UHGV virus genome: UHGV-1354519
From: a virus
DNA: 41,558 nucleotides
Direction: 5' to 3' (one strand)
Part shown: one piece after another, positions 5,269 to 22,002 of the stretch
Position numbering within the stretch: the stretch's first letter is position 1
Layout of the letters: each line of letters begins with the position of its first letter
Notes under the pieces: generated by a model
Database searches by the model: none
What the model saw: the letters and a program-made list of their open reading frames with translations, nothing else
What the model was told of the DNA's origin: nothing
Translations under genes and position numbers: made by a program

Positions 5269-5340
5269 TTGCAGGAGAAGGAATCGAACCTCCGACCTTC
5301 AGCTAAGGAGACTGACGAGCTTCCACTGCTCTATCCTGCT
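5269..5340 (-). tRNA. tRNA-Arg (anticodon CCU, reads AGG)
   Basis: The minus-strand cloverleaf was folded by hand. D arm GAGC/AGTGGAA/GCTC. Anticodon arm TCAGT-CTCCTTA-GCTGA. T arm GGAGG-TTCGATT-CCTTC. Acceptor 6/7 pairs, with A1:A72 unpaired. Confidence 0.55.
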
Positions 5341-5985: not shown

Positions 5986-6059
5986 TCCGGACAACGGGAA
6001 TCGAACCCGTGACACACAGCTTATAAGGCTTCTGCTCTAACCGACTGAGCTATGTCCGA
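5986..6059 (-). tRNA. tRNA-Ile (anticodon UAU, reads AUA), tentative
   Basis: The cloverleaf was folded by hand. D arm GCTC/AGTCGGTTA/GAGC. T arm ACGGG-TTCGATT-CCCGT. Acceptor TCGGACA/TGTCCGG. Anticodon loop CTTATAA. The anticodon stem is weak (A:G mismatch). Confidence 0.45.
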
Positions 6060-12227: not shown

Positions 12228-12665
12228 CTATAAAAATTGGAATCCTGGATGTCCTTCTTTCTGCTTTTCATTTTGCGGTTCTTTCATCAACTCTTGCTGA
12301 TCCAGATAATTTTTCTTGCTGATCTTCATCCAGTCTTTCCGTGTGTGTGACTTTTCATATTCCCTCTGTGCGATCTCGCAAAGCAGTTCTCTTGTCTTTC
12401 TGCAATTATGTACAGCTTCTTTCCCGCTTTTATGGTGCGGTTCACACAAATACACTTTCAATCCCTCGGCTTCCGATAGAATTCTCATCCCGGATCCAAA
12501 CAATACATGGTGTTCCTCGGTATACTGCTGCCGATAGTCTCCATACAGATTGGCACAGAGATAGCACACGCCCTTTTCTGTGTTCAAAATGCTTTTCGGA
12601 TGGCTGATTCTCTTTTTCTTCTTTTTCGGCTTAGGAAACGCCATATCACTATAATCAATACTCAT
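12228..12665 (-). CDS. putative zinc-binding HNH-like nuclease
   Basis: Has the CYLC...EEHHV...CEPHH pattern. Start is taken at MSIDYS, in ATGA coupling with the upstream stop. Confidence 0.3.
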   Translation of the reverse strand: MSIDYSDMAFPKPKKKKKRISHPKSILNTEKGVCYLCANLYGDYRQQYTEEHHVLFGSGMRILSEAEGLKVYLCEPHHKSGKEAVHNCRKTRELLCEIAQREYEKSHTRKDWMKISKKNYLDQQELMKEPQNEKQKEGHPGFQFL

Positions 12666-13810: not shown

Positions 13811-15775
13811 CTATCCTGCTTTCCTTTCTGTGCTCCTGAGCTTCTTTTTTTGGAACAGCTCGACAAATTCTTTCACTTCCTCTGTCATAGGTCCGTTATA
13901 TTTTGCCCTGCACTGTATCATGGCTCCATTGTTTACCTCCATCGTGTAAAACGGTGTTTCCGGATTCTGCTTCTTTCGCAGGAACAGAATCGTTGTCTCC
14001 CCTTTGGCCACCCGGTCAATATACGTGGCAACGCAATGATGCATGGCATTTCCCTCCTGCCGGATTTCATGGATCCGTTTCGGAAGCCTCAATAAAAATT
14101 GTTCTGTTTCCATTTCCAGATAGCTGTCCCGTTTTCTGTATTGCTCGTACTTTTTGTCTTTTTTATTGTCCAAATCTTCTTTGGCTTTTATTTCTCGTTC
14201 TCTGCTCTCTTCAATCAACTCTTCATGACGCTGCTTCAAATTCTTCGGGAATAAGATCCACGGCTCTCGCATGTTGTACCCCAGTTCCTCTGCCATCTTC
14301 AGATAATCGTGATAATCCACGGCTTGTCTCTCATCTTCTCCTAACACTTCTTTGATGTACCGTTCCATCTTGTGAATGGTGGTATACCGGATATACCTGG
14401 TGAAATTCCTCGGAAACCTTGCAAAAAACTGAACCTGCTGCCATGTTGGATGCAATCCCTTTTCCTGCATTTTATAAGTGGTGTTGTATTCCCTTGTGCT
14501 TGGATTCTTTCCAGCCAACAGCTGGTAGTATTCCCCGTTTAGCCCCAGTATCTTTTTACAAGACCTCTCTTTCTTCTTTAAGTTTCCTGTGTTGTACCCC
14601 TGCATTTTTTCTTTGACAATTCTGTAAAACCCACACTTTACCAGCTGTTCGATTCCAGGCATATGCCGGTATCCCTCCAGATATTGATCCAAATACATTT
14701 TTTCCCGATATTTCCCATGTTTCACAAAATATTCCATTGCAGAATACTGAAACGGTGTTCCTTTTAAGATCTGTTTGAGATTCCGGTTATATAGGACCGC
14801 TTCATTTTCTACCACTTTCGCATAATACCGGCCCACCCTGTAACACCATCGAACCCAGTCTGTCTGCTTATACTGTTCATATTCAAATTCATGAATCTTT
14901 TTTAAATTCCGGTCATACGTGATCCGTATCAGCTCCCAGTACCCGCCATCTCCCTTTTGTCCATTCCTGAATTTCCGATAGCACTCAAAATATCGGTATA
15001 CATATCCCTCTTTTGTTTTCTGCAGGAGCCCTGCATACCCTCTTGCATTGACATTTCCGCCTTTCTTTCGGCTTCTGTAGGTAACAGGATGCTTGCAGGA
15101 TGGGCATTCTCCCGCGTCTCCATAGTGTGGATTCCGGATTTTCACTTCTCTTCCACAATGTGTGCAATGCCCTTTTGTTACTTTTCTTCCGGCATCATAA
15201 AACAAGTACTGGGGAAGGACTTCCCTGTCTACAAAATCATCAAAATCTTTCGGCAGTTCCGGCACCAGCGCCATCTCAGAATCAATTTCATCAATCTCTT
15301 TTCGTCCTTTACTATAGCTTTGCCATCTTGCGATTGCTGCACGTGGCTCTTCCTTCCCGTTGTGACAAAATTCTGTGATCCGTTTTCGGTCCCCTTCTCG
15401 TATCCATACTTTTCCACTACTGTACCAGTATCCTTCTTCTATCTCTCCCCATCCTTCCCAATAACTTAAGTTATCTATTTTTGCCGTTCTCCACTTCTCA
15501 CACAGATTGTCGTAAGTGTAGTACTTGTTTTCTCCCAAAAGGAATACCCGGTATTTTGGATATCTTGTGTCATTCAGGATCATATCTCTTGTAAATACAT
15601 CGATCTCTAAAACCGTGCCTGTCTTCTTCGCACGATAGAACCAATAATATGTTGCGCTCCACACAGGCGCTCTTCCACATCTTAGTACCTGATGTCCTTG
15701 ATCTTCCCCGACTGTCTTTCGCATCGTTTCCGTTACTTTTAACTCTGGAAGCTTTAATAACTCTCCTCGTCTCAT
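13811..15775 (-). CDS. PcfJ-like protein
   Basis: The C-terminal RQEGNAMHHCVATYIDRVAKGETTILFLR matches the PcfJ signature. The track ORF extends to 15901; the Met at 15775 gives ATGA coupling with the upstream gene. Confidence 0.6.
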   Translation of the reverse strand: MRRGELLKLPELKVTETMRKTVGEDQGHQVLRCGRAPVWSATYYWFYRAKKTGTVLEIDVFTRDMILNDTRYPKYRVFLLGENKYYTYDNLCEKWRTAKIDNLSYWEGWGEIEEGYWYSSGKVWIREGDRKRITEFCHNGKEEPRAAIARWQSYSKGRKEIDEIDSEMALVPELPKDFDDFVDREVLPQYLFYDAGRKVTKGHCTHCGREVKIRNPHYGDAGECPSCKHPVTYRSRKKGGNVNARGYAGLLQKTKEGYVYRYFECYRKFRNGQKGDGGYWELIRITYDRNLKKIHEFEYEQYKQTDWVRWCYRVGRYYAKVVENEAVLYNRNLKQILKGTPFQYSAMEYFVKHGKYREKMYLDQYLEGYRHMPGIEQLVKCGFYRIVKEKMQGYNTGNLKKKERSCKKILGLNGEYYQLLAGKNPSTREYNTTYKMQEKGLHPTWQQVQFFARFPRNFTRYIRYTTIHKMERYIKEVLGEDERQAVDYHDYLKMAEELGYNMREPWILFPKNLKQRHEELIEESREREIKAKEDLDNKKDKKYEQYRKRDSYLEMETEQFLLRLPKRIHEIRQEGNAMHHCVATYIDRVAKGETTILFLRKKQNPETPFYTMEVNNGAMIQCRAKYNGPMTEEVKEFVELFQKKKLRSTERKAG

Positions 15776-16227
15776 TTCTCCGCCTCCAGATAGTATTCTT
15801 CTGCCATGGCAAATACTTCCAGATCCGGCATTGCCACCATTTGTGCCCCTCTTCTTTCTTTGACTCTTTTTTCCGCTTCTTTTCGGATATTCTGCAGACA
15901 TTCTTTGAGTGTCCGGTTCTTTCTTCTTACCGCTCTGGCCAGAATTTCTTTTTCAAAACATCTCATAGACAGATACGACACGATCTCTCCTGCCGGCATC
16001 CCGTCTGTTTCCTCCTTTAACTCAACCTGCAGCTTTCCGATGGCCGCATTTACTGAATCTACCAGTTCTTCTGACAGATGCTGCTCATATACTTCCCGGA
16101 TTCCATCTGGAATCCCGTTTTCCTCTGCCAGCACTTTTAAATGCTCCAGATCCTGCTCCTCCAAAAGTCCTTTTGCACATGCATTTAATTCTTCTACGGA
16201 ATCAAAATTCCCAAATACATCAAACAT
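15772..16227 (-). CDS. PcfK-like protein (tentative)
   Basis: 151 aa, acidic. It sits immediately upstream of the PcfJ-like gene, as in the pCF10 pcfK-pcfJ pair. Confidence 0.35.
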   Translation of the reverse strand: MFDVFGNFDSVEELNACAKGLLEEQDLEHLKVLAEENGIPDGIREVYEQHLSEELVDSVNAAIGKLQVELKEETDGMPAGEIVSYLSMRCFEKEILARAVRRKNRTLKECLQNIRKEAEKRVKERRGAQMVAMPDLEVFAMAEEYYLEAEK

Positions 16228-16657
16228 GCTGTTTTTCCTCCAGTAATCCCTCTAATTTTTCCACGTAATCGTGATGTTTACTAAATCTGACAGCTATTTC
16301 ATGCCGCTCTGACAACGTCTGATACTGCTGCCACAATTCCTGGTTCTTCACCTCTTCCCCGGACGGTTTTCTCCATTCCGCCCGCTTCCACTGCTCCGGC
16401 TTCCCGTTTTCGATCATGTTCTTGATAAAAATACAGTCCGTATACAGGGTCGCATTGCACGGCGCATTTAGTATTTTCAAGGATTTCACAATTCCAAGCA
16501 GCACCAGGCGATAATAGGTCGTCTCCTGTTCTTCCCCGCAAATTCCTTTGACCGCCGGTCCTTTGCTTGTCTGACATTCCATTGCGGCCGCCCATCTTCC
16601 ATCTTTGATACATGGACCTGTCAGACTTGTCCTTATGTAAATATTTACCTCTTTCAT
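16220..16657 (-). CDS. RNase HI-like protein lacking two catalytic carboxylates (probable pseudo-nuclease)
   Basis: It aligns by eye to E. coli RNase HI. IYIRTS aligns to IFTDGS (D10 to R). TTYYRLVLL aligns to TTNNRMELM (E48 to V). D70 is kept (LYTDC). The WK...LWQ and H..V..KHH blocks are conserved. Confidence 0.55.
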   Translation of the reverse strand: MKEVNIYIRTSLTGPCIKDGRWAAAMECQTSKGPAVKGICGEEQETTYYRLVLLGIVKSLKILNAPCNATLYTDCIFIKNMIENGKPEQWKRAEWRKPSGEEVKNQELWQQYQTLSERHEIAVRFSKHHDYVEKLEGLLEEKQHV

Positions 16658-16658
16658 A

Positions 16659-17381
16659 TCAAATTCTCCTGTTCAAACGGATCAGGATGTATCTTCGGTA
16701 TTTATATCCTGTTACCGGATTGATTCCCTCATGGTACGTCTCTTTATCTAGGTAGTATCCTTTTGGTGGCTTCGGCTCATCTTTCCATGTTTTCCTTTTG
16801 TAAATCTTCACTTCTGCCACCGGAATCTTTAAATTCCTGCTACAGGAGTACCGGCTCTCTTTCAGCTTGTTTTCTTCATCCGGCGTTTTACTTAAATACT
16901 CAGCCAGTTTCCGCAAGCCTCCCTCGTCATACAACAGATCGATGTGGACGCCTCCCTTTTCCCATGCTCTGCGCATGATCAGATCTGCATCCGGAATCCG
17001 GTTGATGACCAGATGGTGATGGACCCCTCCCCGACTTCCAATCTCGGTATGCAGCATCCATTTCAACTCCACTTCCTGTTTTTTGTATTGTGTGCGTACT
17101 TTCTGAATCCACTTTCGGATGTCTTTGGCCGCTTCTTTCATGTCCTGTGGCCGGTTCTCCAATTTATAAGTTAATGTCACCCAGTAGTCATTCTCCCGGA
17201 AATTCAGCTTCATCTTTCTCCAGCACTGCCGTTCTTTATTCCACTGATTCGTCTTCCTGATCTGCTCCGGTGTGGCTTTCTTCTTTTTCATTCTCGGCAT
17301 TCCCGGAGCACCATATCTCCCGTTGTGATACTCCATCACTTCTCTGATGTCTCCCAGGTCATAACTCTTTTGTTTATACAT
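16659..17381 (-). CDS. rep: rolling-circle replication initiator (HUH endonuclease, Rep_1/pC194-like)
   Basis: Motif 1 WVTLTY, motif 2 GVHHHLVI (HUH) and motif 3 LAEYLSK (YxxK). RBS AGGAG. Confidence 0.6.
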   Translation of the reverse strand: MYKQKSYDLGDIREVMEYHNGRYGAPGMPRMKKKKATPEQIRKTNQWNKERQCWRKMKLNFRENDYWVTLTYKLENRPQDMKEAAKDIRKWIQKVRTQYKKQEVELKWMLHTEIGSRGGVHHHLVINRIPDADLIMRRAWEKGGVHIDLLYDEGGLRKLAEYLSKTPDEENKLKESRYSCSRNLKIPVAEVKIYKRKTWKDEPKPPKGYYLDKETYHEGINPVTGYKYRRYILIRLNRRI

Positions 17382-17409
17382 CCTGTTTTGCTCCTAAGTT
17401 TAATATACT

Positions 17410-17416
17410 TATCAAG
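17410..17416 (-). promoter_or_regulatory. candidate double-strand-origin nick motif CTTGATA (pC194/pUB110-type)
   Basis: The minus strand reads TTCACTTGATAAGTATAT 29 bp upstream of the rep ATG. The pUB110 nick region is CTTGATACATATA. Confidence 0.35.
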
Positions 17417-17454
17417 TGAAAAACGGGAGCTTTTCGCTCTCATTTTCTTTGACA

Positions 17455-17512
17455 TTTTGCCAATACAGGTGTACAATATAAATGTGTTTTTATTTTGTTT
17501 GTATTGGCAAAA
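17455..17512. repeat. 13-bp perfect inverted repeat TTTTGCCAATACA / TGTATTGGCAAAA separated by 32 bp
   Basis: Seen directly. It lies upstream of rep. An adjacent imperfect inverted repeat GGTGCATCTG...CAGGTGCAC lies at 17517-17544. Confidence 0.5.
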
Positions 17513-17542
17513 TATCCGGTGCATCTGTTTGCGGCAGGTGCA

Positions 17543-17827
17543 CTAATTTTTTACGCTTTTTTCTATGTACCTGCAGCTAAGTTCCAATCCTGCTGTCATG
17601 ATGATCATCCCTATCCATAAGGATCCGGTTCCCATCAGCATGACCGCACAAATTCCGAATGCTGCTTCCAGGATCCGCAGCAATTCCTCTGCATACCGAA
17701 GCTGTCTTCTCTTCCGGAAACTCATACGATGATGTACTCTCCCCCGATTTCTTCTGCTACCTGTTTCGCTTCCTGGTACGTCCCATACTCGCTCCGGATC
17801 TTTCCGGATTGCCAGCGAATGATCCAT
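17543..17827 (-). CDS. hypothetical membrane-anchored protein
   Basis: RBS AAGGAGAGG. C-terminal hydrophobic helix. Confidence 0.4.
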   Translation of the reverse strand: MDHSLAIRKDPERVWDVPGSETGSRRNRGRVHHRMSFRKRRQLRYAEELLRILEAAFGICAVMLMGTGSLWIGMIIMTAGLELSCRYIEKSVKN

Positions 17828-17848
17828 ATCTGTTTCCTCTCCTTCTCT

Positions 17849-18007
17849 TCATTCAAATCCAAGTTCTTTGATCCTTTCTTCGATTAGCTTCAACTCTGCA
17901 ACAGCTCCTTCCTCTTCCGGAAACTGCCGCAGTTCCTCTCTTCTGCTGACAAGCCTGCTGTACTCAATGACTTGTCCTGCCGTCATGTTCAAGATTCTCT
18001 GGTCCAT
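17849..18007 (-). CDS. 52-aa hypothetical protein
   Basis: RBS AAAGGAG. Its start overlaps the 3' end of the upstream ORF by 44 nt. Confidence 0.3.
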   Translation of the reverse strand: MDQRILNMTAGQVIEYSRLVSRREELRQFPEEEGAVAELKLIEERIKELGFE

Positions 18008-18188
18008 TGGTCGCTCCTTTGATTTTTACTGATTTTCTTCCTTGATACTCCAACTCCCTGCAGTAATTGTTTAAGCAGGCAATCGCATGCTGTTTCTGCT
18101 GTTCCGAGTAGCCATTTACTCTTTCGGTCAAGCTTAGTTCCTTTATAAACTTATCGATTCGCTGTATGGTTAATCTTTTGTTTTTCAT
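17964..18188 (-). CDS. hypothetical small protein
   Basis: Start is taken at the ATG after GGAAGGTGG. Confidence 0.3.
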   Translation of the reverse strand: MKNKRLTIQRIDKFIKELSLTERVNGYSEQQKQHAIACLNNYCRELEYQGRKSVKIKGATNGPENLEHDGRTSH

Positions 18189-18212
18189 ATGTTTGTCCAC
18201 CTTCCCCCGCCT

Positions 18213-18371
18213 TCAGGCGGTTTTCTCTTTTCGTAATAATGCTTCCTGGATGATCCTGCTGCATCCATCTATCAGGCTTTTCACCTCTTCCTCTGTTCGT
18301 TCTGCATAACAGTCATCGTGTACCCGGATTGTTGCATTTTTTACTTTTACTGTTTCTACGATCAAAATCAT
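18213..18371 (-). CDS. 52-aa hypothetical protein
   Basis: RBS GAGGTGATG. Below the track cutoff. Confidence 0.25.
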   Translation of the reverse strand: MILIVETVKVKNATIRVHDDCYAERTEEEVKSLIDGCSRIIQEALLRKEKTA

Positions 18372-18425
18372 CACCTCGCTATTATGTATGCAGGTTGATT
18401 GTCCAAGGTATGTTGTCCATTACCT

Positions 18426-18611
18426 TTATTTCCGAGTTGTTCCGAATCTATCAGCCAGCATATTTACAACATCTCTGACAAAATTTAAGTTCATTTTAAA
18501 CACTCTATCCGCTTCATCTCGCATAATATTCAAAGATTCCCTTGCGATAATAAGGCTTGTTGCAATTGATGCTATGATTGAGCAGATAACGCTTGCTATT
18601 ACAATTTCCAT
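18426..18611 (-). CDS. small membrane protein (N-terminal TM helix)
   Basis: RBS AGAGAGGAG. Divergent from the plus-strand promoter at 18660. Confidence 0.35.
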   Translation of the reverse strand: MEIVIASVICSIIASIATSLIIARESLNIMRDEADRVFKMNLNFVRDVVNMLADRFGTTRK

Positions 18612-18659
18612 CTTTTCTCCTCTCTATGTTTAATCGCCATCGTAACCTCCGTGGCTGGA

Positions 18660-18730
18660 TTGCTTTCTTTTGGTTTATCTCCTATACTGTTAATACAGGC
18701 ATCTGCCAATGCCAAGTATTGTGAAAGGAG
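18660..18730 (+). promoter_or_regulatory. promoter TTGCTT-17-TATACT plus conserved operator/leader (copy 1)
   Basis: About 54 bp is near-identical to copy 2. An imperfect palindrome AATACAGGCAT-N6-ATGCCAAGTATT lies just downstream of the -10. Confidence 0.45.
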
Positions 18731-18740
18731 AAAAAACAAA

Positions 18741-19046
18741 ATGGCTAAAATGAAACTGCAAAAAATTGCAGATCTATCTTTAAAAAACATGATTATTACC
18801 TATCATGATACTAATCGCACTAGATTTGATATGGATTTCTTCACAACCTTATTTACAGAAGAAACTCAAGATCATATTACAAACGCTCTGCAAGTTTTAG
18901 AGAGTGATGGTTTAGTTGATGTTTTCATAGCAGACACAATAGCTTATATGACCACGCTCCATCCAAGTGCAATTAGAGATTTTGAAGAAGATACCCTGTT
19001 GAAAAAGGGATACAAATGCATTAAAGAAATCAGGTCTTTAATTTGA
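18741..19046 (+). CDS. hypothetical protein, lysogeny-side plus-strand gene
   Basis: 101 aa from MAKMKLQ. RBS GAAAGGAGA. The track start at 18651 lies upstream of its own promoter. Confidence 0.45.
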   Translation: MAKMKLQKIADLSLKNMIITYHDTNRTRFDMDFFTTLFTEETQDHITNALQVLESDGLVDVFIADTIAYMTTLHPSAIRDFEEDTLLKKGYKCIKEIRSLI

Positions 19047-19268
19047 TACAATCCAATCATCAGCCATTAAGTCATCCGCTGTTGGACTCCACATCTTACA
19101 GTGGTTGACTTCTTTTCCATTTTTATCAAATGTATAGGCAATACAGGATTCACTACTATTTGTCGGTCTAATCTTCAACTCTCTGTATGCTGTCTTGTTT
19201 TCGAATAATTCTCTTTCTATGTATTTTCTTTCTTCTAATGCCTGTTTCACTGCTTCCTGTATGTTCAT
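19038..19268 (-). CDS. DUF2829-family protein (Tad2-like candidate Thoeris anti-defence sponge)
   Basis: 76 aa. The N-terminal MNIQEAVKQALEERKYIER and C-terminal W-PTADDLMADDWIV match the DUF2829 pattern as I recall it. Confidence 0.5.
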   Translation of the reverse strand: MNIQEAVKQALEERKYIERELFENKTAYRELKIRPTNSSESCIAYTFDKNGKEVNHCKMWSPTADDLMADDWIVSN

Positions 19269-19285
19269 CTTCCTTGCCTCGCTTC

Positions 19286-19468
19286 CTACTCCAAAAAATA
19301 ATCCACTGATACACCGAAGTAATCAGCTACCTTTTTCAGCTTATCCACACTTGGAGACGATTCTCCCCACTTCTTAATTGTTCCGTTTCCAAAGCCCAGA
19401 GTTTTCTCAAGACAACTGATTGAGATGTTGTTCTTCTCTGCCAGCTTTAAAATTTTTTTAAGTATCAT
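19286..19468 (-). CDS. short XRE-family HTH regulator (Cro/CI-like)
   Basis: 60 aa. ILKKILKLAEKNNISISCLEKTLGFGNGTIKKWGESSPSVDKLKKVADYFGVSVDYFLE is a canonical HTH_XRE sequence. Confidence 0.75.
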   Translation of the reverse strand: MILKKILKLAEKNNISISCLEKTLGFGNGTIKKWGESSPSVDKLKKVADYFGVSVDYFLE

Positions 19469-19487
19469 AATTCCCTCCTTTTGTTTT

Positions 19488-19794
19488 CCATCTTGTAGAC
19501 AACTGCATATATATCTGTTACAATAACCTTGTTACACTTAGATAATTTTCTAAAGGTCATAAATGGCTGGAAAGGAGTTGCCGAGGAGTAACAATCTTAA
19601 GGATACCTCCGCAAAAGGAGGTGAGACTTAAGGGAATTAATCCAAATAATTCTAGAATGTATTGTGTGCATTTTTGAAATTGTTAGATTTCTAGAAGACC
19701 ACGATATGTAATAGTCTCTCCCCGTGATTATCATCCAACGATAGTTACGTGGAATCCTTTTTTCCGTACATACATGCAGTTGTCTACAAGATGG
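19488..19794. repeat. 21-bp perfect inverted repeat (CCATCTTGTAGACAACTGCAT at 19488-19508 and ATGCAGTTGTCTACAAGATGG at 19774-19794) bracketing a 265-bp ORF-free region
   Basis: Seen directly. The interior carries CTTAAG x2 and TTCTAGAA x2 palindromes and a GGAGG/CCTCC hairpin. Confidence 0.6.
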
Positions 19795-19815
19795 AAATCT
19801 TTATCTTCACATCTG

Positions 19816-19887
19816 TTGTCTTTTACCCTTTTGTCTCCTATACTGTTAATACAGGCATCTGCCAATGCCGAGTATTATGAAAGGAGA
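19816..19887 (+). promoter_or_regulatory. promoter TTGTCT-17-TATACT plus conserved operator/leader (copy 2)
   Basis: Duplicate of the 18660 unit, with 3 mismatches over about 54 bp. Confidence 0.45.
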
Positions 19888-19895
19888 TAACGTAA

Positions 19896-20075
19896 ATGGA
19901 TCATATTTCTGACATCTCTCAATTACGAGAATTATTAAACGAATCCAGCCGAGAAATTCAGGAAAACATAAGTTCTTCCACTATTGATTTTGGTACAAAA
20001 TCCCTTCTTGATTCTATTGCTCAACAAAATCATTATGTTCTGTCTGGAATTATCGAGTATCTTGAGAACAAGTAA
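19896..20075 (+). CDS. 59-aa hypothetical protein (MDHISDISQLRELLNESSREIQ...)
   Basis: Below the track cutoff. RBS AAAGGAGA. It converges on and overlaps the 20050..20244 gene. Confidence 0.35.
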   Translation: MDHISDISQLRELLNESSREIQENISSSTIDFGTKSLLDSIAQQNHYVLSGIIEYLENK

Positions 20076-20244
20076 TTTTTTCTTCTTCATCGCACTCTTC
20101 CACAACTACTTTTATCTGTGTAGGAGTGCGATAAAGAATATCTCTTGCTTGATCTATAAGCCTTTCTGCTTTTTCTAAATTATTTAATACTTCATTTTTC
20201 CCTTCCACTTTAATGCGCATGCTCTTTACCTCACTTTCTTTCAT
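20050..20244 (-). CDS. 64-aa hypothetical protein
   Basis: Strong RBS AGAGGAGG with a 7-nt spacer before the ATG (MKESEVKS...). Confidence 0.4.
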   Translation of the reverse strand: MKESEVKSMRIKVEGKNEVLNNLEKAERLIDQARDILYRTPTQIKVVVEECDEEEKITCSQDTR

Positions 20245-20335
20245 TTTGTTCCTCCTCTGCAAAATCCATCGGGTTCACTCCAAGAAATTTACATATAATA
20301 ATTGCTTCATCCATAGATAATAACGGTCTACATAT

Positions 20336-20380
20336 CCGAAGATATGCTATTGAAATCCACGAATATTGTATCATCTTCGG
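20336..20380. other. imperfect 45-bp palindrome (CCGAAGAT...ATCTTCGG arms), attP candidate A
   Basis: Seen directly, 90 bp upstream of int. Confidence 0.3.
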
Positions 20381-20469: not shown

Positions 20470-22002
20470 ATGTCTTATTTTATCTACGCCAGAAAATCCA
20501 GAAAAGACGCCGAACTGGAAGCGCTAGGGATTGATGTTCTGGAACGCCACATTACTACCCTGTTAGAGTTGGCAAAGACTCTCTCTCTTCCGATCGGTGC
20601 GATTTACCGGGAAGTTGTGTCCGGAGACAGTATCGATGCCCGCCCAGTCATGACGCAAGTCCTCTCTGAGGTAGAAGCCTGTATGTGGGATGGCGCCCTC
20701 GTAATGGACGTAGATCGTCTGGCCAGAGGTGATACGATCGATCAGGGGCGTGTGCAGCGTGCATTTTTTTATTCCAACACCCGGATTGTAACACCGAATA
20801 AAACCTACGATCCTGCAAATGAGTATGATAATGAGTATTTTGAGTTCAGTTTATTTATGAGCCGCCGTGAGTACGCCACAATCAAGCGCCGGATGCAGCG
20901 TGGCAGGGAACGTTCCAGTTCTGATGGTTATTACGTTGGCAATGTTGCCCCTTATGGATGGGAGCGTGTCATTGCACCGGATGGAAAGCACTACTCTCTC
21001 GCCCCACATCAGACCGAAGCACCAGTCCTTGATCTGATGTATGATCTGTGCGGAAATAAGCAGTACGGATACCAAAAAGCCTGTACCTATATGTCCAATA
21101 TGGGAATCCTTGCAAGGAGCGGAAAGCCTTTCGCTCCCTCCACTTTAAAAGGAATTATCTCAAATCCGGCAAACATCGGAAAAGTCCGTTGGGGATATCG
21201 TAAGACAGTCAGAGCTGTAAAAGACGGTCGTGTGGTAAAGTCCCGTCCAAACGCCACGGATTACATTCTCGCAGACGCAGCATGGGCGCCACGTATCAAC
21301 ATAGACTTATTTGAGCGTGCGAATCAACCAAAAGGATGCTTCTCTGCTCCGATCAGAAGTGATCGGCCGATACAGAATCTATTTGCAGGTCTGGTCAGAT
21401 GCTCGCAATGCGGCCGGCTTATGGTCCGCAAGAAAGCACAAACAAAAACACCCTATGATTTTCTGATTTGCCAGTATGCAGAGTGTTCCACGGTCGGAAT
21501 ACGGATTGATGAACTGGAAGAAGCTCTTCTGGGGTGGCTGAAAGACTACATAGCCAAGTATGAATTTTCTGACACTCATGAGGAAGATACTGCTGCCATT
21601 GCCGCAAAAGAATTGATCGTCACAAATTTTGAGACTGAACATCAGACGCTTTTGAAACAGAGAGAATCCTTATTTGATTTTTTAGAGCAGGGAATTTACA
21701 CAAAAGAAATCTTTATTGAGCGTTCGAATGCACTGGAACAGCGGATCAGAGACTGCATGAATAACATCACTGCTGCCCGTGAAGATTTGTATGTCACAAT
21801 CGCAAGGCAGGCAAACCGAAAGAATTTTGTCCCGAAGTGCAAGAACTTATTGAGTGAGTGGGGCTCTCTGACTGTCCCGGAAAAGAACAGTGCCTTGAAA
21901 CAGCTGATTGACAGGATTGTTCTGACTAAAACGAAACGAAATAAGAAAAACCAGAAAAACTCTGAATTCACAATCGATGTGTACCCGAAAGTGCCGAAAT
22001 GA
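20470..22002 (+). CDS. int: large serine recombinase (phage integrase)
   Basis: 510 aa. N-terminal resolvase-like FIYARKSRKD (Ser nucleophile), a recombinase domain, the zinc ribbon CSQCGRLMVRK...CQYAEC and a coiled-coil C-terminus. Confidence 0.9.
   Translation: MSYFIYARKSRKDAELEALGIDVLERHITTLLELAKTLSLPIGAIYREVVSGDSIDARPVMTQVLSEVEACMWDGALVMDVDRLARGDTIDQGRVQRAFFYSNTRIVTPNKTYDPANEYDNEYFEFSLFMSRREYATIKRRMQRGRERSSSDGYYVGNVAPYGWERVIAPDGKHYSLAPHQTEAPVLDLMYDLCGNKQYGYQKACTYMSNMGILARSGKPFAPSTLKGIISNPANIGKVRWGYRKTVRAVKDGRVVKSRPNATDYILADAAWAPRINIDLFERANQPKGCFSAPIRSDRPIQNLFAGLVRCSQCGRLMVRKKAQTKTPYDFLICQYAECSTVGIRIDELEEALLGWLKDYIAKYEFSDTHEEDTAAIAAKELIVTNFETEHQTLLKQRESLFDFLEQGIYTKEIFIERSNALEQRIRDCMNNITAAREDLYVTIARQANRKNFVPKCKNLLSEWGSLTVPEKNSALKQLIDRIVLTKTKRNKKNQKNSEFTIDVYPKVPK

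Follow-up and report, generated by a model that had tools for sequence, protein, structure and literature searches.

A promoter-hairpin-ribosome-site unit duplicated in a gut phage genome as a probable portable cassette for accessory genes of Lachnospiraceae phages

The virus genome UHGV-1354519 (41,558 nucleotides (nt); "the window" below denotes this whole stretch of DNA) has been described in a preliminary way as carrying a duplicated promoter-operator-leader unit ahead of two different small genes. However, comparison with copies of the unit in other genomes points to its dyad being a hairpin of the plus-strand RNA rather than a repressor operator. The unit combines a putative promoter, this hairpin and a strong Shine-Dalgarno sequence (SD), and it is found in front of many mutually unrelated small genes. 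On balance, and with moderate confidence, we favour the view that it is a widespread promoter, RNA-hairpin and ribosome-site cassette of gut Lachnospiraceae phages that is portable and serves accessory ("moron") genes.

Results

The unit and its duplication in the window

The window contains a direct repeat of 61 nt (18674-18734 and 19830-19890, start-to-start distance 1156) in which 57 of 61 positions (93%) are identical. The duplication described earlier, as about 54 bp with 3 mismatches, is thereby confirmed, with 4 mismatches on recount. Within the repeat lies a mismatch-free core of 36 nt (18678-18713 = 19834-19869), and the 31-mer TATACTGTTAATACAGGCATCTGCCAATGCC, which covers the -10 element and the hairpin, occurs exactly twice in the window compared with 0.00 expected occurrences from 100 shuffles. 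The two units are composed as follows:

18660-18740 (+): unit 1; -35 TTGCTT 18660-18665, 17-nt spacer ending in TCTCC, -10 TATACT 18683-18688
18694-18718 (+): unit 1 hairpin, UAC-A-GGCAU-CUGCCA-AUGCC-AA-GUA; UAC 18694-18696, stem GGCAU 18698-18702 / AUGCC 18709-18713, loop CUGCCA 18703-18708, GUA 18716-18718
18723-18730 (+): unit 1 SD GAAAGGAG; start codon ATG at 18741
19816-19895 (+): unit 2; -35 TTGTCT 19816-19821, 17-nt spacer likewise ending in TCTCC, -10 TATACT 19839-19844
19850-19874 (+): unit 2 hairpin, identical to that of unit 1; SD GAAAGGAG 19879-19886, ATG 19896

All features of unit 2 up to the SD are offset by +1156 from those of unit 1 and the ATG by +1155. The dyad of both copies can be written as UAC-A-GGCAU-CUGCCA-AUGCC-RA-GUA, with predicted folding energies of -9.0 and -10.7 kcal/mol. 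The open reading frames (ORFs) named in the preliminary description were all found, namely those of 101 amino acids (aa; 18741-19046), 59 aa (19896-20075) and 61 aa (18426-18611, minus strand). The 59-aa gene was also said to lie upstream of the integrase gene, which holds for the order of the genes but not for contiguity, as a hairpin (20083-20138) and two minus-strand ORFs (20050-20262 and 20231-20374) intervene.

Copies of the unit in other phages and genomes

An nhmmer profile search over the window and 164 other loci (120 viral loci and 44 genome loci) gave 230 copies, 1-5 per locus, which point in the same direction on one strand in every multi-copy locus. The loose search pattern TCTCCTATACTGTNNNTACNGG matches at least 117 IMG/VR contigs and 44 species genomes, nearly all of them from Lachnospiraceae or other gut Clostridia; the sources comprise gut viral contigs, Lachnospiraceae genomes and cultured Ruminococcus gnavus phages. 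The exact 22-nt hairpin core is present in 13 viral contigs, some of which show the two-copy arrangement of the window. Locus L007 carries four copies within 2.3 kb, each directly 5' of a different plus-strand gene, and in the cultured phage phiRgPS_6 the unit precedes gp25 (+) and is flanked by cro gp23/gp24 (-) and early genes (-). In the paper on those R. gnavus phages (PMC10072058) neither promoters nor hairpins are mentioned. Tandem arrays of 4-5 units, spaced by about 440-1,360 nt and on one strand, were also seen in L147, a 3.8-kb contig of a metagenome-assembled genome, and in L140. No terminator-like site was found between the four tandem units of L147. Any of seven tested early genes of the window is shared by only 61/120 viral loci and 10/44 genome loci, so the unit is more widespread than any single phage backbone.

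The dyad behaves as an RNA hairpin

In an alignment of 72 sequences, pairing in the inner stem reaches 94%. Six pair types each were found for 43:54 and 44:53, and pairs 41-44 contain no unpaired cell among 288. The covariation score of 0.353 compares with 0.122 for shuffles, of which 0/500 reach it, and with at most 0.097 for slid registers, and RNAalifold recovered the same structure independently. The 212 parsed copies contain 55 distinct hairpins with 234 Watson-Crick, 26 G·U and 5 A·C pairs and 1 other pair, and pairing of the inner stem is retained in no fewer than 15 different sequences. G·U occurs in 25 of the distinct variants and A·C in 5 (binomial p = 1.6e-4). Because G·U far outnumbers A·C, a strand preference for which a double-stranded protein site would give no reason, the substitutions point to a hairpin of the plus-strand RNA. 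Single-stranded plus-strand DNA would also favour G·T over A·C, but we regard this as less likely.

The hairpin also holds a fixed place. Its motif is always accompanied by a -10 just upstream (198/198), the distance from the -10 to the hairpin base is 10 nt in 212/230 copies and the SD GAAAGGAG is conserved about 10 nt 3' of it. Given a standard start site, the stem would begin at about +3/+4. Diverged units keep a hairpin of quite different sequence at the same place (L042 position 1148, L104 position 7643 and L053 position 2715).

The preliminary description had taken the palindrome for a classical DNA operator of the XRE protein, an idea that can be put more generally as a double-stranded operator over the start site that is bound by XRE60 (the 60-aa XRE-type protein encoded between the two units) or by a CI protein and co-represses or co-activates both genes. 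The position suits this idea well: the imperfect dyad spans about -5 to +25 of the expected start, the classical operator position, and like the lambda OR/OL operators it lies in the lysogeny/early-gene region. In some variants the palindrome even reaches the base right after the -10 (GTAATTA...TAATTAC in L042/L100), which would be untranscribed given a standard start. UAC and GUA are invariant, and the XRE gene sits inside the segment bounded by both units. However, the substitutions are strand-asymmetric, whereas a CI/Cro-type half-site would be expected to change symmetrically, the many stem variants preserve pairing and not sequence, and the palindromic register of the stem does not extend to the loop. 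The sequence does not track a cognate repressor either: the identical core occurs in L008, which has a 209-aa S24/LexA-like repressor, and in L007, which has a 151-aa protein, and these repressors are 32% identical in the helix-turn-helix (HTH) only. Moreover, hairpin variants are mixed within single phages, with three of them in L007, which also sets the dyad apart from lambda-type operators. Finally, a 28-nt inverted-repeat arm flanks unit 2 but not unit 1, so that the regulatory contexts of the two units are not equivalent. The operator proposal was not borne out by these comparisons and we consider it improbable.

The putative promoter element

Exactly 17 nt separate TTG from the -10 in 224/229 copies. 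The latter element reads TATACT in 212 of the 230 copies, TATAAT in 8, TATTCT in 4 and TGTACT in 4; for most copies it was part of the retrieval pattern, whereas the -35 and its spacing were not. Homology among different contexts starts at TTG, while the 5' flank and most of the spacer vary. Since hexamers and spacing are fixed while the flank is free and the spacer largely free, the comparison supports TTGnnn-17-TATACT as a predicted sigma-A-type promoter. It also supports the earlier view of the units as modules of promoter, leader and SD for two different plus-strand genes that are antisense to the early/lytic genes. A generic promoter scan listed only unit 2 (9/12), the TTGCTT of unit 1 being under the scan threshold. 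A divergent minus-strand promoter was considered as a cause of the conservation of the hairpin loop, as the minus strand reads xTGNCA at 16-17 nt from TATAGG. It was rejected because the first T is variable, TATAGG lacks the final T and the tandem arrays have no minus-strand gene for it to drive.

Genes behind the units

Two orphan genes follow the units of the window:

18741-19046 (+): cargo gene 1, 101 aa, predicted all-helical, orphan family; 9 homologue clusters; phrog_3675, function unknown
19896-20075 (+): cargo gene 2, 59 aa, orphan family; 18 homologue clusters, one labelled Blautia sp.

Homologues of cargo 1 start at the second ATG (18750), and the protein matches only two PHROG families of unknown function. 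In line with the earlier statement that neither protein has a recognisable domain, both are without matches in Pfam (above threshold), NCBIfam and PADLOC, and the 59-aa protein has none in any of the domain and defence libraries searched. A profile search of the PDB with the cargo proteins of the window returned chance-level matches only. The AlphaFold2 model of the 101-aa protein, built on a 6-sequence alignment, reached a predicted local distance difference test score (pLDDT) of 59.5 and was too poor for a fold search.

Across the family, units precede 118 distinct proteins that form 59 mutually unrelated BLASTP families. Most of these cargos, both of the window included, are without annotation. 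Annotated ones are the defence-like Abi_alpha (PADLOC PDC-S47, E 1.6e-88) and DUF4145 (PD-T7-4, E 4e-6) as well as DUF2513 and DUF2321, and several cargo sequences show by eye hydrophobic segments resembling membrane anchors. Ten cargo families stand behind one identical left flank, which is the leader of the 61-aa gene and, in other phages, the left flank most often seen next to the unit. The accessory-gene reading of the preliminary description fits these findings, since the unit precedes 59 unrelated families of which a few are defence-like. For the two genes of the window, expression in the lysogen and a role in defence are plausible. A literature search for Lachnospiraceae morons gave nothing relevant, and a census of flanking-ORF strands was too noisy to use owing to greedy ORF calling.

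Two further hairpins lie in or beside the cargo genes. One of them, CTGCAA-AAAA-TTGCAG at 18756-18771, falls into the first codons of the 101-aa ORF. It is terminator-like on both strands, its tail is rich in U on the minus strand, and an XRE60/Tad2 transcript could terminate there ahead of unit 1. The other follows cargo 2:

20083-20138: 22-nt arms (86% complementary) forming a hairpin between two convergent genes, 59-aa (+) and 70-aa (-); both strands lack a T-run

Recombination between units

Near-identical L008 matches the window over 16000-18731 and 19830-20269, both at 99.1% identity, and the two matches overlap in one 58-nt hybrid unit. L008 is equivalent to the window minus exactly 1,156 bp bounded by the repeats. 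Both L008 and L002 contain one hybrid copy with the left flank of unit 1 and the right flank of unit 2. The missing piece is made up of one repeat copy and the following segment:

18735-19829: inter-repeat segment with cargo 1, the Tad2-like gene, XRE60 and the inverted-repeat region; with one repeat copy, the 1,156-bp piece absent from L008 and L002

As L008 lacks exactly the segment between the copies, the repeats act as recombination joints as well. The crossover lies in the identical core, whether the segment was deleted or inserted. In L007, L010 and L009 the same promoter and hairpin are joined to other genes, and homology to the window stops just after the hairpin.

Parts of XRE genes were also seen at other junctions. 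Truncated remnants of the XRE gene that correspond to its last ~60 nt (encoding ...ADYFGVSVDYFLE) are repeated immediately 5' of units in cassette arrays (L007 3574-3630, 5110-5166 and 5953-5996; also L045, L064, L113 and L076), and this end segment seems to be a second conserved recombination joint. In addition, L009 encodes an intact XRE protein of 76 aa (12262-12492, minus), of which the 47-aa ORF at 20231-20374 (-) represents the C-terminal portion. Beside the integrase gene (20470-22002, +), this truncated ORF looks like a recombination scar at the integrase junction.

Neighbouring genes and an inverted repeat

The window is a temperate phage-like genome with a large serine integrase at 20470-22002 (+). 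Its early and replication genes are on the minus strand (Rep ORF2/G2P-like, RNase H, PcfK, PcfJ, SSB and Bro-N), as are the ORFs from 22165 upward. In the early region at 13811-17381 (-), PcfK- and PcfJ-like proteins are encoded alongside the Rep ORF2/G2P-like protein and RNase H; Pcf families are usually found on conjugative plasmids. Two tRNA genes lie in the early region as well, at 5269-5340 (-) and 5986-6059 (-) (Rfam RF00005, 54 and 60.8 bits). Around the units the following features were found:

18426-18611 (-): 61-aa ORF with N-terminal hydrophobic helix, divergent from unit 1
19038-19268 (-): Tad2-like (Thoeris anti-defence 2) gene, 76 aa; PF11195, E 2e-12, 47.9 bits vs cut-off 25; phrog_643
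19286-19468 (-): XRE60, XRE/Cro-type HTH protein of 60 aa
19485-19512 / 19770-19797: 28-nt inverted-repeat arms, 96% complementary, with a 257-nt non-coding spacer (19513-19769), between XRE60 and unit 2

The Tad2-like gene is convergent with the 101-aa gene and has a 9-nt overlap with its end. XRE60 has no CI-like repressor beside it, and the window lacks one at the place where L008 (209-aa S24 type) and L007 (151 aa) carry theirs. In L009, L101 and L048 both inverted-repeat arms and the spacer's first ~95 nt show almost 100% conservation, while the remainder is ~77% identical and contains a 76-nt indel. The conserved part includes two TGTTACA repeats and a strong plus-strand promoter-like site directed toward unit 2 (TAGACA-17-TGnTACAAT, 19496-19524). 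The predicted 380-nt RNA from this promoter into unit 2 has a fold z of -4.5. This region is likely to be the operator and switch region for XRE60 and a better candidate for it than the palindrome of the units; possibly it is also a non-coding RNA. An invertible promoter switch was rejected, as the spacer is collinear with its flanks in all ~12 related loci and no inverted orientation was seen.

Discussion

The findings suggest how such a cassette might work. A sigma-A-type promoter TTGnnn-17-TATACT, which is conserved among the copies, would drive the cassette. With a start ~7 nt after TATACT, the hairpin delineated by covariation would be placed at the extreme 5' end of the mRNA, followed ~10 nt further on by the strong and fixed SD GAAAGGAG. 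Any one of many unrelated small genes could stand after the SD as cargo. The hairpin could be a 5' mRNA stabiliser or a site for a reader; most likely it would, together with the SD, protect the 5' end from 5'-dependent decay. The cargo would then be expressed stably and autonomously from its own promoter on the prophage strand, opposite to the early lytic genes. At the DNA level, the shared core of 40-60 nt would also serve as the homologous-recombination joint by which cargo is inserted, deleted or swapped.

Several observations weigh against this explanation. With 4-6 bp and -3 to -10 kcal/mol the hairpin is a short one, and the minimum free energy fold predicted for the promoter-initiated RNA of unit 1 is an alternative one. 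Single-sequence fold z-scores of the window hairpins are weak (-0.6 and -1.4), so that the evidence for the structure comes from comparison among copies and not from energy. The loop C-Y-G-N-C-A, with 0-1.24 bits per position against 1.74-1.86 bits in the stem, is more conserved than the stem, and the flanks UAC and RAGUA are near-invariant. Likewise, TCTCC just 5' of the -10 is near-invariant (194/230) without explanation. The 101-aa gene is without a terminator of its own and overlaps the convergent Tad2-like gene. The apparent conservation of TCTCCTATACTGT, TAC and GG is inflated because most copies were retrieved with a pattern that fixes them; unbiased copies are only the ~20 distinct diverged ones found by profile.

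The conservation of loop and flanks exceeds what a plain stabiliser would predict and suggests a sequence-specific reader or a role at the DNA level. A trans-acting factor, be it an RNA-binding protein of the phage or the host, an RNase or a complementary RNA loop, might read the hairpin loop and flanks and co-regulate all cassettes, for example for shut-off in lytic growth or for mRNA processing, with promoter and cassette serving as described above. Stem positions 3-4 are indeed far less conserved than the loop, the distance between hairpin and promoter is fixed, and pairing between loops would be possible. Loops of class UGCCA are the reverse complement of those of class UGGCA, and about a dozen phages have both (e.g. 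L014, L036 and L092); UGCA loops are self-complementary. The loops of the window are at 18703-18708 and 19859-19864. However, a candidate for this factor was not found. None of the seven tested early genes can be a universal partner, given the limited share of loci that have any of them. Furthermore, loop classes vary within single phages, and the different hairpins at the same place in the units of L042, L104 and L053 speak for shape over sequence. Owing to the loop and flank conservation we regard a sequence-specific reader as conceivable, albeit unlikely. With the same reserve, the units could be understood as an undescribed RNA/promoter motif family, an "accessory-gene regulon", in which a dedicated factor or loop-loop pairing would recognise the CYGNCA hexaloop and UAC...RAGUA and thereby switch the cassettes jointly, while the core would drive shuffling of the kind known from promoter-early stem-loop (PeSL) cassettes.

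The cassette might also insulate each gene against transcription coming from outside, which would be an addition to the cassette explanation rather than a replacement and would fit the near-invariant TCTCC. In read-through RNA, originating from tandem cassettes or from the promoter at 19496-19524, the pyrimidine tract/TCTCCU would fold onto the SD and block translation, so that only RNA from the cassette's own promoter would be translated. Fold-back inhibition in IS10 is an analogue. In predictions for 134 distinct units the SD is unpaired at 0.60 in promoter-initiated RNA vs 0.06 in read-through RNA, with about half of the pairing involving the TCTCCT region. The 101-nt and 380-nt folds from the window pair the SD with UCUCCU (z = -2.2, -3.1 and -4.5), and read-through would agree with the lack of terminator-like sites among the four units of L147. 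However, with shuffled upstream sequence the SD is still only 0.13 unpaired, which makes the masking mostly a composition effect, and the pairing is weaker with the TCCCC variant, present in 20 copies. Covariation provides no test here, since other constraints act on both partners. Anti-SD fold-back was rejected as the main function since the predicted masking is largely a composition effect, and even as an addition it seems quite improbable.

Returning to the cassette as the preferred explanation, PeSL cassettes of T4-type phages are its closest known analogue. They consist of a sigma-70 promoter, a stem-loop and an SD 5' of ORFans and mediate modular shuffling (Arbiol et al. 2010, PMC2839356; Comeau et al. 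2014, PMC4122927). Both are repeated composites of the same three elements, with -10 sequences TATACT or TATAAT in 220/230 of our copies, and both are located immediately 5' of small ORFans, where the genomes are most plastic. Indels and replacements among close relatives are explained in either case by recombination between copies, as is reflected here in the 59 cargo families, the ten families behind one flank and the case of L008. However, PeSLs belong to T4-like lytic myoviruses of Gram-negatives, whereas the present units occur in temperate siphophage-type elements of Gram-positive Lachnospiraceae. Homology to T4-like myoviruses was not found, the matches being Lachnospiraceae phages and prophages with integrases, and the units share no sequence relationship. 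The PeSL stem-loop is G/C-rich, variable in its position around the promoter and an effective terminator. In contrast, the stem of 4-6 bp described here always lies ~10 nt after the -10 and evolves as a plus-strand RNA leader; without T-run or terminator-like call, its sequence is not that of a terminator or attenuator. The present family would therefore be similar to PeSLs in its working but not a member of them.

The genes served by the units resemble morons. As Juhala et al. reportedly described in 2000, a moron of lambdoid prophages is an extra gene with its own promoter and terminator that is expressed from the prophage. Similarly, genes behind the units are present or absent among near-identical phages, as seen with the 1,156-bp segment, have a predicted promoter of their own, are antisense to or independent of the lytic operons and in some cases are of defence type. 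Classical morons, however, each have a promoter of their own, whereas one promoter-leader family serves at least 59 cargo families across backbones here, and a downstream terminator is not evident for cargo 1. The family may be viewed as a particular form of the moron arrangement, with a single conserved promoter-leader common to many cargos.

For the hairpin itself, 5' mRNA stabilisers of Bacillus subtilis offer a comparison. They comprise the aprE leader stem-loop, ermC and the cryIIIA STAB-SD, the aprE leader being an example of a 5' stem-loop combined with ribosome binding (reviewed in PMC3997798). Like them, the units have a strong SD, and their stem-loop would lie at or near the predicted 5' end. 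An effect that is independent of the downstream coding sequence, as with these stabilisers, fits a cassette for many unrelated cargos. The SD GAAAGGAG resembles the GAAAGGAGG STAB-SD. In contrast to the stabilisers, loop and flanking bases of the units are conserved beyond the needs of stabilisation.

Other identities of the unit were considered and rejected. An intrinsic terminator does not agree with the missing T-run; the units were not among the terminator-like sites found, and none was seen in the L147 array. A gene-specific cis-regulatory leader (riboswitch or autoregulatory protein site) would not fit the 59 unrelated cargo families. A known RNA family was dismissed because Rfam gave nothing on either unit at gathering score or E <= 10, and only the two tRNAs reach the gathering score in the window. 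As to an integron attC site, the only recombinase is the large serine integrase, the cassettes each have their own promoter and RYYYAAC/GTTRRRY boxes are not present in the unit. A rolling-circle origin for Rep (ORF2/G2P-like) would be at odds with a motif that occurs up to 5x per genome and always 5' of an ORF, and Rep is present in only 34/120 viral loci.

The repeats explain how the Tad2-like anti-defence gene, the XRE gene and the 101-aa gene can move as one block that is inserted or deleted. One short motif marking at least 59 families of prophage accessory genes would allow a direct listing of such genes in gut Lachnospiraceae (R. gnavus, Blautia, Dorea and Roseburia), and at least two of the cargo families belong to known or candidate defence systems. 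The motif is also experimentally accessible, as it occurs in cultured, lysogenising R. gnavus phages. Mobile regulatory cassettes, so far described for lytic T4-like phages, would be extended to temperate phages of Gram-positive bacteria, and the covarying leader hairpin adds an RNA-level component that is absent from Rfam. If the units indeed form a regulon, they would represent a new class of regulatory RNA, and their sequence would serve to flag novel genes for defence and anti-defence in gut phages.

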